A stretch of 64,000 bases of DNA from Verrucomicrobiia bacterium (lineage in GTDB: Bacteria; Verrucomicrobiota; Verrucomicrobiia; Limisphaerales; UBA11358): positions 76,893-140,892 of the forward strand of contig JBAPQW010000014.1 in the NCBI GenBank assembly GCA_049280815.1, given 5' to 3'. Position 1 is the stretch's first letter, and each line of letters opens with the position of its first letter. Made by a program: the position numbers and the translations under genes. Below the pieces are notes generated by a model. It did no database searches. It was not told the DNA's origin and worked only from the letters and a program-made list of their open reading frames with translations. Positions 28,157 through 60,532 of this stretch are shown in pieces.

Positions 28157-29254
28157 TTAGTTTGATGCGCGTCCCGTGACGCCCTTGGTTCCCTTGGTGA
28201 TGGCCCGGGCGGGTTCCTTCGGACGCAGGGCGCGGACGGCGGCGCCGGCGCGCCACATTTCCGAGTTGTGGAGCTGGTCCAGTTCCTTCTGCAACAGCTT
28301 CTGGTAATTCGAGCCACCGCAGGCGGAAAGCACCCGAGTACATTCTCGGCCGTCCTTGACGCGCCGATACAGGTCCTTGAACACCGGCAACGTCGCCTTC
28401 TTGAAGTGCGGTTTCCAGTCCAGCGCGCCGCGCTGGGCGGTGGCGGAGCAGTTGGAATACATCCAGTCCATCCCATTCTCATCCACTAGCCGGATGAGGC
28501 TCTGAGTGAGTTCCTCGACGGTTTCATTGAACGCCTCGCTCGGCGAATGGCCGTGGGCGCGCAGCACCTCGTATTGCGCCTCCATGACGCCAGCCAGCGC
28601 CCCCATCAAAATGCCGCGTTCGCCGGTAAGGTCGCTGAACACCTCGAGCTGGAACGTGGTGGGGAACAGATAGCCGGAACCGACGCCAATGCCCAGCGCC
28701 AGGCAGCGCTCGGTGGCGCGGCCGGTGTAATCCTGGCCGACGGCAAAGCTGGAATTGATGCCCGCGCCGGTGAGGAAGTTGCGGCGGACGTTCAGGCCGG
28801 AACCCTTCGGCGCCACCATGATCACGTCCACGTTTTTCGGCGGGATGACGCCGGTCTGTTTCTTGTAGGCGATGGAAAAGCCGTGTGAAAAATAAAGCGC
28901 CGCACCGGGTTTCAAGTGTTTCTTGACCGTCGGCCAGATCTGGCGTTGGGCGGCATCCGAAACCAGCATCTGGATGACCGTGCCCTTTTGCACCGCTTCC
29001 TTGATGTCGAACAGGGTCTTGCCGGGCTTCCAGCCATCGGCCTTGGCGCGGTTCCAGCCCTTGCCGCCGGGGCGGTTGCCGATGATGACGTTGAAGCCGT
29101 TGTCGCGGAGGTTCAGCGCCTGGGCCGGTCCCTGCACGCCGTAACCGATGATGGCGATGGTTTCGTTCTTCAGCACCTTGCGCGCCCGGGCCATCGGGAA
29201 TTCCTTCCGGGTGATGACCTTTTCCTTGGTTCCGCCAAAATCAATGATTGCCAT
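28157..29254 (-). CDS. ilvC: ketol-acid reductoisomerase
   Basis: IAIIGYGVQGPAQALNLRDNGFNVIIG and AQRGALDW motifs. Confidence 0.93.
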   Translation of the reverse strand: MAIIDFGGTKEKVITRKEFPMARARKVLKNETIAIIGYGVQGPAQALNLRDNGFNVIIGNRPGGKGWNRAKADGWKPGKTLFDIKEAVQKGTVIQMLVSDAAQRQIWPTVKKHLKPGAALYFSHGFSIAYKKQTGVIPPKNVDVIMVAPKGSGLNVRRNFLTGAGINSSFAVGQDYTGRATERCLALGIGVGSGYLFPTTFQLEVFSDLTGERGILMGALAGVMEAQYEVLRAHGHSPSEAFNETVEELTQSLIRLVDENGMDWMYSNCSATAQRGALDWKPHFKKATLPVFKDLYRRVKDGRECTRVLSACGGSNYQKLLQKELDQLHNSEMWRAGAAVRALRPKEPARAITKGTKGVTGRASN

Positions 29255-29389
29255 AATCTTCTCTTTCTTCGCTGGTATTGGTTTGTCTCTTTAACTCGTC
29301 AAATGAACCCTGAATCTTAGCCGCCTTGGCGTGCCAGTCAAACGGAAACACGGCGCGGGTAAAGTCGTGAAGCCCGGGTCCGGGTCCGG

Positions 29390-29863
29390 TTATTTGCGGG
29401 GCAAGGCGACCTTGCCGGTGCGCGTGATTTCCTGGACGCCGAACGAATCCATCAGGCTGATGAACTTTTCCACCTTGCTTTCGGTGCCGGTGATTTCAAT
29501 GGCGAGCGTCTTGGGCTGCACGTCCACGATTTTCGCGCGAAAAATATCGGTGATCTGCATCACCTCGGCGCGCGACTTGGCGTCCACGCCCACTTTGACG
29601 AGCACCAGTTCCCGGTCCACGTATTCGCCCTCGTGAAAATCCTGCACCTTGATGACATCCGGCAGCTTGTTGAGCTGCTTGACAATTTGTTCCAGCGTGG
29701 CCTCGTCGCCGTGGGTGACGATGGTCATGCGCGACGTCTTGGGGTCCTGGGTTGGGCCGACGTTGAGGGTGTCGATGTTGTAGCCGCGGCCGCTGAACAG
29801 GCCGGCCACGCGCGTGAGCACGCCGAACTTGTTCTCGACCAAAATCGAAATGGTATGTCGCAT
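29390..29863 (-). CDS. ilvN: acetolactate synthase small (regulatory) subunit
   Basis: MRHTISILVENKFGVLTRVAGLFSGRGYNIDTLNVGPT is an ACT domain. No large-subunit gene is adjacent. Confidence 0.9.
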   Translation of the reverse strand: MRHTISILVENKFGVLTRVAGLFSGRGYNIDTLNVGPTQDPKTSRMTIVTHGDEATLEQIVKQLNKLPDVIKVQDFHEGEYVDRELVLVKVGVDAKSRAEVMQITDIFRAKIVDVQPKTLAIEITGTESKVEKFISLMDSFGVQEITRTGKVALPRK

Positions 29864-33922: not shown

Positions 33923-34765
33923 TCAACCGATCAACGCGCGGACTTTCGTGCCGATGTCGCCGCCTTTCATCAGGGATTCACCGACCAGGATCGCCTTCGC
34001 ACCGCACTGCTTCAAACGCTCCACATCCGCGCGCGTGTGAATGCCGCTTTCTGCCACCAGCAAAGGACAGGGCGGAGGATTGGGCATGGAGGATGGCGTG
34101 GAAGTTTTTGCCATCTTCGATCTGCCAACTTTCATCACCGCCGCCAGAAGCTCCGTCGTCGCCAGGTCCACCTCGAAATTTTTCAAATTGCGGTTGTTCA
34201 CGCCGATGAGCGTCGGGGAGATTTTCAACGCGCGGTCCAATTCTGGCTCATCGTGGACTTCAACCAGGACGGCGAGGCCGGATTCCGTCGCGAGCGAATG
34301 GAATTTTTCCAGCTGTTCGTCGCTTAAAATCGCGACGATGAGCAGGATGGCGTCCGCGCCCCACTCGCTGGATTCGAGGATTTGCCGCTCATCGATGATG
34401 AAATCCTTGCGCAGCAACGGCAGCTTCACCGCCGCGCGGATTTGCCGGAGATAATCGAGCGACCCCTGGAAAAACTTCTCATCGGTCAAAACGGACAGGC
34501 AGCTGGCGCCGCCTGCCTCGTAGGCTTTGGCGATGCGAACGGGGTCAAAGTCCTGGCAAATGACGCCGGCGGACGGCGACGCCTTTTTAACCTCGGCAAT
34601 CAATGCCAGGTCGCCCCGGCGCGGCTGGCGCAAGGCGGCGAGGAAATCGCGCCGTTCACCGCGTTCGAGCAAGGCATCGCGCAAATCGCCCGCGGCAAGC
34701 ACGCGCTCGGAAAGGCGGGCGACCTCCAGTTTTTTCTCAGCCACGATTTTATCGAGGATGTTCAT
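33923..34765 (-). CDS. trpC: indole-3-glycerol phosphate synthase
   Basis: LIAEVKKASPSAG, LSVLTDEKFFQGS, LRKDFIIDERQI, IGVNNRNL, VAESGI. Confidence 0.92.
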   Translation of the reverse strand: MNILDKIVAEKKLEVARLSERVLAAGDLRDALLERGERRDFLAALRQPRRGDLALIAEVKKASPSAGVICQDFDPVRIAKAYEAGGASCLSVLTDEKFFQGSLDYLRQIRAAVKLPLLRKDFIIDERQILESSEWGADAILLIVAILSDEQLEKFHSLATESGLAVLVEVHDEPELDRALKISPTLIGVNNRNLKNFEVDLATTELLAAVMKVGRSKMAKTSTPSSMPNPPPCPLLVAESGIHTRADVERLKQCGAKAILVGESLMKGGDIGTKVRALIG

Positions 34766-46376: not shown

Positions 46377-47342
46377 TTATTTCAACCGGATGCGCGGATC
46401 GCTCCAGGCGAGCAAAATATCAGCGATGAAATTTCCGATGACAAGCAACGCCGTGGCCATGACGACGCAGTCCACGACGAGATAGGAATCCTTGGCAAAA
46501 AAGGCCTCCATGGTGAGGCGTCCCAGGCCCGGCCAGGCCATGATGTTTTCCACGATGAAGGCGCCGCTCAACAGCGCGGCGAGCGAGTAGCCGAAAATGG
46601 TCAGCAGCGGATTGATGGCGTTGCGGAGCGCGTGTTTGTAAATCACCCAGCCTTCGCCGAGGCCGCGCGCACGGGCGGCGGTGACATATTCGGCGTGGAG
46701 GGTGTCGAGCAGATTGGACCGCATCTGGCGCATGATGCCGGCCAGGTCGGAAGCGGCGAGGACCAGCGCGGGTAAGATCAGGTGGTGGGTGAAATCCCAG
46801 AATTGTTGCATCGGCGACATCAGATCGTGAACCGGACTTTGCGCGCCGCCGACGGGAAACCAGCCGGTGGAAGCCGCGAACCACAGTGCCAGCAGTGACA
46901 GCAATATGTCGGATATGGACAGGCCTACGAAGGAGATCAGCGAACAGGTACGGTCAATCCATGAATCCTTCCGGACCGCCGCCCAGATACCGAGCGGAAT
47001 GGCCACACCCCAGGCAAAAATCATTGCGAAAAACGAAAGCAAAAACGTGTTCCACAGCCGTGCGAAGATGAGCGAGGTCGCGGGAATTTTGTAGGCCATC
47101 GAATAACCGAAATCCCCCTGCAGAATACTCTTGAACCAGTAGAAGTATTGGATATACCACGGTTTATCGAGGTGGAATTGAGCCTTAAGATGCGCGATGG
47201 TCTCCGGCGAGATTTGCGGGTTTTGCGAAAGCGCAGTGAAATAATCGCCGGGCGCGAGCGACATGAGCAGAAACGTGAGCAACGAGACCCCGATCAACAG
47301 CGGAATCATGTGCAGCAATCGTTTCAGGACAAATGTCAGCAT
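46377..47342 (-). CDS. peptide ABC transporter permease (OppB/DppB-like)
   Basis: MLTFVLKRLLHMIPLLIGVSLLTFLLM and EYVTAARARGLGEGWVIYKHALRNA. Start set to ATG 47342. Confidence 0.9.
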   Translation of the reverse strand: MLTFVLKRLLHMIPLLIGVSLLTFLLMSLAPGDYFTALSQNPQISPETIAHLKAQFHLDKPWYIQYFYWFKSILQGDFGYSMAYKIPATSLIFARLWNTFLLSFFAMIFAWGVAIPLGIWAAVRKDSWIDRTCSLISFVGLSISDILLSLLALWFAASTGWFPVGGAQSPVHDLMSPMQQFWDFTHHLILPALVLAASDLAGIMRQMRSNLLDTLHAEYVTAARARGLGEGWVIYKHALRNAINPLLTIFGYSLAALLSGAFIVENIMAWPGLGRLTMEAFFAKDSYLVVDCVVMATALLVIGNFIADILLAWSDPRIRLK

Positions 47343-57857: not shown

Positions 57858-58961
57858 ATGTTAAAAGCTGGAATTGTCGGTTTGCCCAACGTCGGGAAAT
57901 CCACCCTGTTCAACGCCGTCACTCGCACGCGCAAGGCCGAGGCGGCGAATTATCCCTTCTGCACCATTGACCCGAACGTCGGCGTCGTCACCGTGCCGGA
58001 CGCCCGGCTCGAACCCCTCGCCAAAGTCGCCAAAACCCAGGTCATCATCCCGGCGGCGATTGAATTTGTGGACATTGCCGGCCTGGTCAAGGGCGCTTCC
58101 CAGGGCGAGGGCCTCGGCAACAAGTTTCTCACCCACATCCGGGAGGTGGACGCCATCGTCCAGGTCGTGCGCTGCTTCGAGGACGCGGACATCCATCACG
58201 TGACCGGCACGGTGGATCCCGTGCGCGACATCGAAACCATCACGACGGAGCTGGTGCTGTCCGACCTGGAGGCGGTGCAGAAACGGCTCGCCAGCGTGGC
58301 CAAGGACGCCAAGCGCGGCGACAAGGAGGCGCTCGCCCAGGAAACCGTGCTTAAAAAAATCGAACCGCACCTCAATGCCGGCAAGCCCGCGCTCACCCTG
58401 CAGCTTGCCCCGGAGGAAAAGGCCATCTCGCGCCTGTTCTGGCTGATGACCGACAAACCCACGATTTTTGCGTGCAACGTCAAGGAATCCGACCTGGCCG
58501 CCGCGGACAGGAATCCGTTCATCCAAAAGGTGAGCGACTACGCCCAGCATCATTTTGCCTGCGAGGCCGTCGTCATCAGCGCGCAGATCGAAAGCGACTT
58601 GATCGATTTGTCGGCGGACGAGGCAAAACAATTTCTGAAGGAACTTGGCGTCGAGGAATCCGGGGTCGGCGCGCTGATCCGCGCCACGTATCATCTGCTC
58701 GGCTTGCGCACGTATTTCACCGCGGGCGAAAAGGAGGTGCGCGCCTGGACGATTCACGCCGGCGACACCGCACCCAAGGCCGCCGGGGTCATCCATTCCG
58801 ACTTCGAACGCGGTTTCATCAAGGCCGAGACCGTCGCCTACGACGACTTGATGAAGTGCGGTTCCATCGCCGCCGCGCGCGAAAAAGGTCTCTACCGCAT
58901 GGAAGGCAAGGAATACGTCGTGAAGGACGGCGACGTGCTGCTGTTCAAGTTCAACGTGTGA
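57858..58961 (+). CDS. ychF: redox-regulated ribosome-binding ATPase YchF
   Basis: [37 protein letters not shown]-terminal TGS domain [27 protein letters not shown]. Confidence 0.95.
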
Positions 58962-58973
58962 TCTTAATATTTC

Positions 58974-59049
58974 CGATTTTCGATATACGATTTACGCAGG
59001 CAGGTGAATTGGGGAGCGACTCGTAAATCGTAAATCCAATATCGTAAAT
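58974..59049. repeat. inverted heptamer-array hairpin element, copy 2 (homologous to 50938-51020)
   Basis: Left CGATTTT CGATATA CGATTTA CG (58974-58996). 25-nt loop. Right CGTAAAT CGTAAAT CCAATAT CGTAAAT (59022-59049). Same 9-bp stem CGATTTACG/CGTAAATCG and the same loop length as copy 1. Confidence 0.85.
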
Positions 59050-59105
59050 CAGCCAGAATAACGTAATCTCGTCTGCTACATTACCAGCTGGCGCCAGCCT
59101 CCAGC

Positions 59106-59133
59106 TTGACTGGCTGGACCAAGCTGCTATCTT
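59106..59133 (+). promoter_or_regulatory. putative sigma70-type promoter of the aroF leader
   Basis: TTGACT (59106-59111), 16-nt spacer, TATCTT (59128-59133). This would place the TSS at or next to GTG 59140 (near-leaderless), which is a weakness. Confidence 0.3.
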
Positions 59134-59139
59134 TGTCTC

Positions 59140-59229
59140 GTGAACAGCCAGCAAACAAACCACGCAGCCAGCAGCCAGTATTTCTTTTATTGGTTTGGCC
59201 CGGTCGGCGCGCACTTGCGGCTGCGATAG
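59140..59229 (+). CDS. candidate aromatic-amino-acid leader peptide (29 aa)
   Basis: GTG 59140 ... TAG 59227-59229 translates MNSQQTNHAASSQYFFYWFGPVGAHLRLR. Codons TAT TTC TTT TAT TGG TTT occupy 59179-59196. Confidence 0.6.
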   Translation: MNSQQTNHAASSQYFFYWFGPVGAHLRLR

Positions 59230-59256
59230 AATTTTCATCAAACCAATCGCCGCAGG
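59214..59256 (+). promoter_or_regulatory. candidate antiterminator pairing
   Basis: CTTGCGGC (59214-59221) can pair with GCCGCAGG (59249-59256), 8 bp including one G-U. This competes with the terminator's right arm. A further helix is ATTGGTTTG (59189-59197) / CAAACCAAT (59239-59247). Confidence 0.5.
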
Positions 59257-59286
59257 TCGCCAAACGCCTGCGGCGTTTTTGTTTTT
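59248..59286 (+). terminator. rho-independent terminator (attenuator) about 30 nt upstream of aroF
   Basis: CGCCGCAGG (59248-59256) pairs with CCTGCGGCG (59267-59275), a perfect 9 bp, followed by TTTTTGTTTTT (59276-59286). Confidence 0.8.
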
Positions 59287-59314
59287 GTGACCTTCGGCCA
59301 ACCCATAAAAAACC

Positions 59315-60334
59315 ATGATCATCGTGCTCAAACCCCGGATTTCGAGGAAAGAGGAACAGGCCGTCCTCAGGGAAATCCGCAAGCTCGGCTACACCCCCCA
59401 CGTCATGCGCGGCGTGGCCCGCACCGTCGTCGGCGCCATCGGCGACGAACTCACCCACGCCAACCTCGAAACACTGGTCGCCCAGTTCCCGCGCGCGGTG
59501 GAAAGCGTCATGCCCATCCAGAAGCGTTACAAGCTCGTCAGCCGCGAGGCGCATCCGGCCAATTCCACCATCCGCGTCCGCGAACACGTCATCGGCGGCA
59601 AACGACTCCATGTCATGGCCGGCCCGTGCTCGGTGGAAAGCGAGAAACAACTGCTGGCCACCGCCGAGGCGGTGAAGGCCGCCGGGGCGACCATCCTGCG
59701 CGGCGGCGCATTCAAGCCGCGCACCTCACCCTACGAATTTCAGGGACTCGGCGAGAAAGGGCTCAAGCTGCTCGACAAGGCGCGGCGCGCCACCGGGCTG
59801 GCCGTCATCACCGAATTGCTGTCCGAAAATCACGTCGATATGGTGGCTGAATACACGGACATCATCCAGATCGGCGCGCGGAATGCGCAGAACTTTCAGC
59901 TCCTGATCGCCGCCGCCAAAACCGGCAAGCCCGTCCTGCTCAAGCGCGGGCTTTCCATGAAAATCGAGGAATGGCTGCTGGCGGGCGAATATATCCTCGC
60001 CAATGAAAATCCGAACCTCCTGTTCTGCGAACGCGGCATCCGGACATTCGAGACCTACACGCGCAACACGCTCGACCTCTCGACCATCCCCATCATCAAG
60101 CGCGAATCGCATTGTCCGATCGTGATTGATCCGAGCCAGGGCGCCGGGCGCGCGGATCTGGTGACGGCCATGTGCCAGGGCGCGGTGGCGATGGGCGCGG
60201 ACGCGTTGTTGATCGAGGTGCACCCGAATCCGGCGGGAGCCTGGAGCGACGGCGCGCAACAGTTGTCGCTCAACGGTTTCGCAAAACTGATGCAGGAATT
60301 GAAGCCATTCATCGCCGCCGCCGGACGCGAATAA
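59315..60334 (+). CDS. aroF: 3-deoxy-7-phosphoheptulonate (DAHP) synthase, class I-beta with N-terminal ferredoxin-like regulatory domain
   Basis: MIIVLKPRISRKEEQAVLREIRKLGY (regulatory domain), then VMAGPCSVES, LRGGAFKPRTSPYEFQGLG, QIGARNAQNF, KRGL, DPSQGAG. Confidence 0.92.
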   Translation: MIIVLKPRISRKEEQAVLREIRKLGYTPHVMRGVARTVVGAIGDELTHANLETLVAQFPRAVESVMPIQKRYKLVSREAHPANSTIRVREHVIGGKRLHVMAGPCSVESEKQLLATAEAVKAAGATILRGGAFKPRTSPYEFQGLGEKGLKLLDKARRATGLAVITELLSENHVDMVAEYTDIIQIGARNAQNFQLLIAAAKTGKPVLLKRGLSMKIEEWLLAGEYILANENPNLLFCERGIRTFETYTRNTLDLSTIPIIKRESHCPIVIDPSQGAGRADLVTAMCQGAVAMGADALLIEVHPNPAGAWSDGAQQLSLNGFAKLMQELKPFIAAAGRE

Positions 60335-60403
60335 GCGCTAGAACGCGAAAAGGCATAACGAGCGCAAATGGTGGGGCGAAGCTGCTGACGAACCGTTTTA
60401 ACC

Positions 60404-60431
60404 CTCAACCGTCAACGCTCAACCACCAACC
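60404..60431. repeat. heptamer array CTCAACC GTCAACG CTCAACC ACCAACC
   Basis: Four 7-nt units (a degenerate tail continues to about 60442) in the aroF / PRC-BON spacer. Confidence 0.75.
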
Positions 60432-60532
60432 AAACTTCAACCGCACAGGCGCCAACCCGCCGTCTGGCCGCTTGCGTTCCTGAAACCTTCAGTAAGGGTA
60501 ACACCCCATGGCCTCCATCCGGTTCCCGGCCT

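Follow-up and report, generated by a model that had tools for sequence, protein, structure and literature searches.

A conserved aromatic leader ORF and terminator in front of the DAHP synthase gene of Limisphaerales: a probable transcription attenuator sensing phenylalanine, tyrosine and tryptophan

The question raised by this locus is what occupies the spacer in front of aroF, the gene of 3-deoxy-D-arabino-heptulosonate 7-phosphate (DAHP) synthase, in a Verrucomicrobiia bacterium of the order Limisphaerales (UBA11358), and what it means for the control of this gene. We analysed a window of 64,000 nucleotides (nt), corresponding to positions 76,893 to 140,892 of contig JBAPQW010000014.1 (GenBank assembly GCA_049280815.1); all coordinates below, unless a relative is named, are those of the window. 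The spacer between ychF (57858-58961) and aroF (59315-60334) carries a promoter, a 29-codon open reading frame (ORF) and a terminator hairpin, in that order, and the whole regulatory unit spans 59106-59286. In the original prediction, this arrangement was read as an attenuator that senses tyrosine, phenylalanine and tryptophan and controls DAHP synthase, and this core claim is supported by conservation, by signatures of translation and by the pairing geometry. The unit is very probably a ribosome-mediated, leader-peptide-dependent transcription attenuator of aroF responding to aromatic amino acids. In the source organism, a soil verrucomicrobium, aroF would then most likely be switched on only when these amino acids run short.

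The leader ORF is located on the plus strand (59140-59229), the same strand as aroF, and ends 85 nt upstream of that gene. It starts with GTG, contains 29 codons followed by the stop codon TAG (59227-59229), and encodes MNSQQTNHAASSQYFFYWFGPVGAHLRLR. Six consecutive aromatic codons, TAT TTC TTT TAT TGG TTT (Tyr Phe Phe Tyr Trp Phe), occupy positions 59179-59196, and both the ORF and this run were found in the window exactly where the original prediction had placed them. Six-frame translation of the 64-kb window yields one such run against 0.013 expected, and its origin by chance is improbable. The only other run, of five aromatic codons, is present at 47147 on the minus strand within an oligopeptide permease gene, where it is ordinary. 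Among the terminator-like hairpins of the window, only that of the aroF leader follows a short ORF enriched in a single class of amino acids, and window-wide scans revealed neither a second promoter followed by a short ORF nor a second attenuator-like terminator. The predicted folding of the 209-nt region was better than that of all shuffled sequences (200 of 200, z = -3.6).

The gene downstream (59315-60334, plus strand) encodes a class I-beta DAHP synthase with an N-terminal ferredoxin-like regulatory domain. The original prediction had attributed this domain to the enzyme, and the assignment is borne out by Pfam matches to PF18152 (DAHP_snth_FXD, residues 1-70) and PF00793 (DAHP_synth_1, residues 94-331), and by a full-length alignment of residues 1-337 to the Thermotoga maritima DAHP synthase structures 1RZM/3PG9 (E = 4e-97); homologues of AroF are named 3-deoxy-7-phosphoheptulonate synthase by their sources. 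DAHP synthase performs the first committed step for phenylalanine, tyrosine and tryptophan together, and the attenuator would read all three pathway end products at once. The entry step of the shikimate pathway in this lineage is thus probably under two controls, attenuation and the putative allosteric domain of the enzyme.

The RNA strands that such a switch would use are present in the window. Strand 3 (CGCCGCAGGT, 59248-59257) and strand 4 (GCCTGCGGCG, 59266-59275) are the left and right arms of the terminator hairpin, which is followed directly by the U-tract TTTTTGTTTTT (59276-59286) of an intrinsic terminator. The hairpin had been described as having 9 bp, which is correct, and it comprises 10 pairs when the closing G-U is included; the U-tract had also been placed correctly, and its distance to the aroF ATG, earlier given as about 30 nt, is 28 nt. 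Strand 2 (ACTTGCGGC, 59213-59221), located inside codons 25-28 of the leader ORF, is the 5' arm of the antiterminator and pairs with 59249-59257 of strand 3, which also serves as the 3' arm of this helix. The complementarity of CTTGCGGC (59214-59221) to 59249-59256 was part of the original prediction, and nine pairs result when A59213-T59257 is added. Strand 1 (CAGCCAGCAA, 59145-59154) is a fourth element, absent from that prediction; it acts in the model as an anti-antiterminator, pairs with strand 2 (59215-59223) in the minimum-energy fold, and completes the classical four-strand design with its alternative 1:2, 2:3 and 3:4 helices. One further helix, between ATTGGTTTG (59189-59197, overlapping the aromatic codons) and CAAACCAAT (59239-59247), had been proposed as well. 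The two segments are perfectly complementary in the window, but in relatives only 58% of the alignment cells are paired and the helix is absent from the minimum-energy structures; being unneeded as well, it was left out of the model. A simpler role for the A-rich segment in front of the terminator may be that of an A-tract pairing with the U-tract.

The calculated energy of the strand 1:2 duplex in the window is -13.4 kcal/mol and that of the terminator hairpin is -19.8 kcal/mol. When the RNA was folded only up to strand 3, the antiterminator was the minimum-energy structure (-13.5 kcal/mol). Constrained folding of both alternatives, which the original prediction had suggested as a check, gave two forms close in energy: without a ribosome, the terminator form (-49.0 kcal/mol) was ahead of the antiterminator form (-44.5 kcal/mol) by 4.5 kcal/mol, while under a stalled-ribosome constraint the two differed by -1.3 to +3.1 kcal/mol. 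In these models, such a near balance with a stalled ribosome is of the kind expected of a kinetically decided switch.

A translating ribosome is assumed to cover approximately 12-15 nt on either side of its decoding centre. A ribosome at the leader stop codon would then occupy approximately 59212-59240, including strand 2, while for one decoding an aromatic codon in its A site the cover would end at about 59209 at the latest. From this arrangement we infer a course of events that couples transcription start, ribosome stalling, amino acid supply and the order of RNA folding. Transcription from the promoter at 59106-59133 would probably start at the GTG, and ribosomes would load on the 5' end without a Shine-Dalgarno (SD) sequence. 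With charged tRNA-Phe, tRNA-Tyr and tRNA-Trp all plentiful, the ribosome would reach the stop codon and cover strand 2 (59213-59221), so that strands 3 and 4 would pair, the terminator would form and transcription would end at about 59286. If any of the three charged tRNAs were scarce, the ribosome would stall at 59179-59196 with its leading edge short of strand 2; the free strand 2 would pair with strand 3 before strand 4 is made, the terminator would be blocked, and RNA polymerase would enter aroF. If the leader were not translated, strand 1 (59145-59154) would hold strand 2 and termination would be the default.

Support for this reading comes from relatives of the source organism. One genome per species was scanned with the AroF protein, which yielded 80 loci with AroF identities of 82-94%. 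All of them are from metagenome-assembled genomes; most are labelled Verrucomicrobia, Limisphaerales or Pedosphaera, and about nine carry other, probably wrong, names. In the following, counts of 63 refer to sequences that show the full layout under strict patterns and counts of 62 to distinct leader ORFs. An inspection of the regions upstream of aroF in relatives had been proposed in the original prediction, and it revealed a promoter, an aromatic ORF and a terminator, in the same order and with the same spacing, in about 73 of the 80 loci, which belong to Verrucomicrobia subdivision 3. The strict layout consists of the promoter, 6-7 nt, a GTG or ATG, an ORF of 26-32 codons (22 in one case), a stop codon, usually 17-21 nt, a hairpin with the core CCGCAGG/CCTGCGG and a T-run, and then about 35-45 nt to the aroF ATG; the T-run is present behind the hairpin in every hairpin-bearing locus. 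A Verrucomicrobiota relative with an AroF 55% identical has an upstream gap of 105 nt with no leader and no terminator, and the element is thus a feature of one clade of the order rather than of the phylum as a whole. The wider sampling has a gap at AroF identities of 55-82%: the homologue search returned only proteins at least 86% identical, and the representatives obtained by 50% clustering were all at most 55% identical, apart from a few fragments at about 81%.

The leader ORFs of relatives bear signatures that only translation explains. The peptides are strongly divergent (compare MNSKQVNNAASSQYFFYWFSPVGAHLRLR, MNLIRRQAETAFTGAFYFYFWPEDRRLRLR and MNSFRKPFSFAGWYYFTNAADGCLRLR), and their conservation is limited to the aromatic content and to the segments that double as RNA strands. 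Phenylalanine, tyrosine and tryptophan are all present in 58 of the 62 distinct ORFs, mostly with 5-9 aromatic residues per leader; their order shifts among relatives (YFFYWF, FYFYFW, WYYF and others) while their clustering is kept. Aromatic residues make up about 23% of the leaders vs 8% of the proteins encoded by the window genes, and the codons TTT and TAT are used at shares of 75% and 68%, respectively, compared to 38% and 47% in the window genes. Between the start codon and the TTGCGG motif, six different distances occur (66, 69, 72, 75, 78 and 81 nt); counted with no filter for an ORF, the distance is a multiple of three in 45 of 47 loci, the two exceptions being due to a wrongly picked start. 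The start codon is GTG in 58 and ATG in 4 of the 62 distinct ORFs at the same position, with GTG in close relatives and ATG in more distant ones. The position of the stop codon is likewise kept while its identity turns over (30 TAA, 20 TAG and 12 TGA). An untranslated RNA would not be expected to show this conservation of frame together with start codon exchange and stop codon turnover, which argues, if indirectly, for translation of the leader. The same ORFs are also constrained as RNA: the codons TTG CGG CTG in strand 2 do not vary in their nucleotides, with six codons available for leucine and six for arginine, and this fixation among synonymous choices points to an RNA constraint on the segment.

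These data bear directly on an alternative in which a ligand or an RNA-binding protein sets the terminator switch, in the manner of a riboswitch, a T-box or a TRAP-like system, with the ORF being incidental. The stronger conservation of the RNA strands relative to the peptide would fit such a sensor, as would the fact that aromatic amino acid genes of Firmicutes are controlled in this way. However, frame conservation, GTG/ATG exchange, stop codon turnover and aromatic enrichment are unexpected for an untranslated sensor, and no conserved domain of aptamer size was found, the interval between strands 1 and 2 being free in sequence and varying in length by whole codons. A search of 58000-60500 against Rfam at E-values up to 10 gave no leader family and no T-box or match to any riboswitch class, but only four unrelated matches at chance level. 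We therefore regard control by a ligand or protein as very unlikely.

The pairing potential of the strands is conserved along with the attenuator layout. In the alignment of 63 sequences, 93% of the terminator cells and 94% of the cells of the antiterminator (strands 2 and 3) are paired, and the inner part of the 1:2 helix is paired in 81.5%, compared to at most 46% in its slid controls; one pair of this helix varies between UG (26), UA (25) and CG (8). For all three helices, the slid controls were far below the observed percentages. The core of strand 3, CCGCAGG, is nearly invariant. In full-length folds without a ribosome, the terminator forms in 54 of 58 cases, and strand 2 pairs with nucleotides 7-22 of the ORF in 51 of 58 minimum-energy folds, the strand 1 segment of relatives being GCNNGCAAGU.

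The geometry assumed for the window in the original prediction, in which a ribosome at the stop codon blocks the antiterminator strand and a stalled one frees it, also holds in relatives. In most loci the partner of strand 3 occupies positions -14 to -6 relative to the stop codon, which the last aromatic codon precedes by 27-30 nt, and in 47 of 63 nascent-RNA folds at least 70% of the left arm of the terminator pairs with the -14 to -6 segment. Cognate strand 2/strand 3 duplexes were more stable than non-cognate ones (-18.1 vs -16.7 kcal/mol), a difference reached in none of 5000 permutations, with relatedness of the sequences being ignored; on the same terms, a divergent subset gave -20.5 vs -17.7 kcal/mol (0 of 5000). 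Shifted antiterminator registers with matching flanks were found in L058, L076, L080 and L068.

A second, stronger candidate antiterminator was observed in the 3' halves of the leader ORFs of a subfamily of eight loci (L047, L048, L060, L062, L065, L073, L075 and L035). There, UGCGGCGG...GGGUG, located just after the aromatic codons, is predicted to pair with CACCC...CUGCCGCA in 14-15 pairs with about -19 to -27 kcal/mol; this helix, in the first seven of these loci, and the shifted registers are different solutions that subfamilies have adopted.

The start of the unit has an architecture of its own. The promoter, of the sigma-70 type, comprises a -35 hexamer TTGACT (59106-59111), a 16-nt spacer and an extended -10 element TGcTATCTT (59125-59133, hexamer at 59128-59133), followed by a discriminator of only 6 nt (59134-59139) before the start codon. 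Under the strict pattern, 63 of 81 sequences have this promoter at the corresponding position, 61 of the 63 share its 16-nt spacer, and a pattern scan of the window for TTGAC-N-TGnTAnnnT followed by a start codon returned this single site in 64 kb. The distance from the -10 element to the start codon is 6 nt in 47 of 63 loci and 7 nt in 12, and the sequence of these 6-7 nt is unconserved and contains no SD. A gap of this length is what usually separates a -10 element from the transcription start site (TSS), so the mRNA probably begins at the start codon, and we infer a TSS at or next to G59140. On this ground, a leaderless leader mRNA is moderately probable. The original prediction had listed as its weak points a GTG start, the absence of an obvious SD and an uncertain promoter. 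A leaderless transcript, made from a near-consensus promoter that is conserved in relatives, would explain all three best. The missing SD carries little weight in any case, because SD-like cores (GGAG, GAGG or AGGA) precede, at -20 to -4, only 4 of 35 Pfam-supported genes of the window, according to a rough count with uncurated starts. The region upstream of aroF itself is A-rich and has no SD.

Several observations weigh against the attenuator or against parts of it. Its basis is computational throughout. The cores of strands 2, 3 and 4 are almost invariant; the search for covariation proposed in the original prediction found CG/AU and GC/AU exchanges in the outer pairs of the terminator but no compensatory double change in the antiterminator, and RNAalifold recovered from the alignment only the terminator and not the antiterminator. 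Thin covariation is to be expected because strand 3 must pair with two partners, one of which also encodes Leu-Arg-Leu. Support for the antiterminator nevertheless consists of conserved pairing potential, position and the comparison of cognate with non-cognate duplexes, and not of classical covariation. In most of the states modelled, equilibrium folding does not favour the antiterminator over the terminator hairpin, and the switch would therefore need kinetic control. In the literature searched, there was no study mapping leaderless mRNAs in Verrucomicrobia. Finally, some loci deviate. Five of them (L046, L051, L057, L069 and L074) are without the unit. In L056 and L067, the promoter and an ATG-started aromatic ORF (MIRCFARFSSFAGWFYYRAAGLRS and MIWCLARFSSFAAWFYYWAAPLRSWLR) are present some 250 nt in front of aroF, and no canonical terminator was found after them; the unit may have decayed in these loci, or control may work differently there. 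L026 (2820-2972) and L031 (175-327) keep strands 2 and 3 and have another terminator hairpin (GCCCCGAA/TTCGGGGC) about 5 nt further downstream, and L038 (2838-2974) has retained the promoter and the terminator together with an ORF of normal length, while its peptide, MKSHAAKMIWLSHVSLARAAVGTADSVRF, contains only two aromatic residues.

In L074, one of the five loci without the unit, a promoter of the leader type is located about 70 nt ahead of aroF and is followed by a nine-codon ORF (MSFSIRSRF) whose stop codon is located 2 nt before the aroF ATG.

A promoter and a terminator bound a self-contained transcript, and one could ask whether the unit is an independent small gene, for a small RNA of about 147 nt or an aromatic-rich micropeptide, whose position beside aroF has no regulatory meaning. 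A trans-acting attenuator RNA and leader peptide (rnTrpL and peTrpL) are known in Sinorhizobium. Yet in every case aroF follows the unit immediately and in the same orientation, with its ATG about 35-45 nt away, although a separate aroF promoter was not sought in that interval; neither the window nor the flanking regions of the 80 loci yielded a further copy of the hairpin or the unit; and the peptide is unconserved outside its aromatic content and the RNA-strand segments. A function in trans could, moreover, be added to attenuation and would not replace it. We consider an independent gene at this site to be very improbable, slightly more so than a ligand- or protein-operated terminator.

Two features are located between the terminator and aroF. 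The motif GACCTYCGGCCAAC (59289-59303) is conserved there in most loci and is complementary to the leader segment UUGGCC, and tests for a functional pairing of this motif with the leader, in the window and in relatives, were negative or ambiguous. The segment after the U-tract (59286-59292) shows complementarity to the loop of the terminator and to its inner left arm (59255-59261). This pairing is kept at 75% in 62 sequences with a few double changes, and with one slid control reaching 60% it was judged too weak to interpret.

A further explanation, as improbable as the independent gene, is that control is mainly translational, the terminator being minor and the aromatic-codon segment 59184-59207 pairing with the aroF initiation region (59288-59312) until it is unmasked by a stalled ribosome. 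In its favour, the two segments are predicted to form a duplex of 19 pairs (-22.3 kcal/mol) in the window, which is also part of the lowest-energy structure of 59106-59314, and the motif CGGCCAAC in the 5' untranslated region is widely conserved. Such masking is nonetheless highly improbable and was rejected as unsupported. Duplex strength is inconsistent (median z-score of only -0.9 over 63 loci), the initiation region is predicted to be equally accessible with and without masking of the stall site (0.60 vs 0.61), and column counts are ambiguous (core helix 62% paired vs 60% after a one-column slide). Base composition in itself makes U-rich aromatic codons complementary to an A-rich initiation region.

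An elaboration of the attenuator could nevertheless be envisaged, in which a truly leaderless, GUG-initiated leader acts as a three-input OR gate, responding to a shortage of phenylalanine, tyrosine or tryptophan at the first common step, and in which the post-terminator features (the motif CGGCCAAC, 59296-59303, and the stretch with complementarity to the terminator loop) add a second function. As a whole, this combination appears doubtful, if less remote than the rivals discussed above. Possible second functions would be control of aroF translation or a role in trans of the abundant terminated RNA of about 147 nt, like that of rnTrpL in Sinorhizobium.

Other parts of the window deserve a brief description. 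Between the ychF stop codon, which it adjoins, and the leader promoter there is an AT-rich imperfect inverted repeat (58964-59061). Its arms (58969-58996 and 59022-59049) are 28 nt long and 86% complementary, and three direct copies of TCGTAAATC are present; the repeat could be a ychF terminator, a protein binding site or a small repeat element. As for other genes of amino acid biosynthesis, ilvC and the gene of the acetolactate synthase small subunit adjoin on the minus strand (28157-29863) with no adjacent large subunit gene, and neither a leader ORF nor an attenuator-like terminator was found in the inspected region upstream of ilvN-ilvC. The trpC gene (33923-34765, minus strand) is located downstream of a release factor gene, and nothing attenuator-like was detected upstream of it, this region being covered by the window-wide scans only.

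Soils, peat and lakes harbour large numbers of subdivision 3 Verrucomicrobia; they have rarely been brought into culture, and almost nothing has been learnt about their gene regulation. As a well-delimited and conserved cis-regulatory element, the aroF leader provides this group with a clear promoter consensus (TTGAC, a 16-nt spacer and TGnTAnnnT) and a likely example of leaderless GUG initiation. The leader could serve as a reporter-ready sensor of aromatic amino acid supply, and the alignment of leaders could seed a new entry among RNA families.

The mechanism proposed here is textbook attenuation and adds nothing new in itself, while the element was not found described in the sources searched: searches of the literature and databases revealed nothing on attenuators in Verrucomicrobia or on this element, and aro genes are unmentioned in a broad survey of premature terminators. 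Within the PVC (Planctomycetes-Verrucomicrobia-Chlamydiae) group, trpL-type leaders have been predicted for Chlamydia. Leaderless leader peptides have precedents elsewhere: 14 of them, with AUG or GUG starts, were predicted in Deinococcus deserti (PMC4007540), polycysteine leaderless upstream ORFs occur in mycobacteria (bioRxiv 10.1101/834739), and the ilvB leader of Corynebacterium glutamicum is made without a ribosome binding site (Morbach 2000, as summarised in PMC4046766). Like these, the verrucomicrobial leader would have its start codon at or next to the transcription start and no SD; transcription starts have been mapped in Deinococcus, C. glutamicum and mycobacteria, whereas the leaderless status proposed here is deduced from the distance to the -10 element.

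The original prediction had also suggested that a mixed aromatic leader controlling such a DAHP synthase was novel for this lineage. This was overstated insofar as the aroR leader of C. glutamicum, with its Phe-Tyr-Phe codons, precedes and attenuates the DAHP synthase gene aroF (cg1129) (Neshat et al. 2014, as cited in PMC11802643; Mentz et al. 2013, PMC4046766), while the part of the claim concerning Verrucomicrobia stands with respect to the literature searched. According to PMC11802643, transcription of aroR-aroF rises by ribosome stalling and responds to limitation of phenylalanine and not of tyrosine. The two systems are alike in having a mixed aromatic leader upstream of a DAHP synthase gene. 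Unlike the verrucomicrobial leader, aroR is found in Actinobacteria, has only three regulatory codons and contains no tryptophan codon. No evidence of homology between the two leaders was found, the aroR sequence itself not having been compared. The AroF of C. glutamicum is not known to be of the I-beta type with a ferredoxin-like domain.

In Escherichia coli and other Proteobacteria, pheL-pheA and trpL-trpEDCBA represent the classical design, with a short leader ORF containing tandem codons of the end product, four strands and an intrinsic terminator. The verrucomicrobial unit resembles them in its 1:2, 2:3 and 3:4 pairings and in having a terminator more stable than the antiterminator, so that, as in the textbook case, the order of folding would decide. 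It differs in that pheL and trpL of E. coli each sense one amino acid, control an operon of a terminal branch instead of the first step common to all three, and have a start codon placed after an SD. The regulatory codons are located inside strand 1 in the E. coli leaders and in the loop between strands 1 and 2 in the verrucomicrobial one, and the Phe_leader and Trp_leader models of Rfam do not match the unit. The leaders of the E. coli ilvGMEDA (Leu/Val/Ile) and thr (Thr/Ile) operons belong to other pathways, read other amino acids and have no sequence relation to it, but they share with the aroF leader the presence of codons for several end products, such that a shortage of any of them relieves termination.

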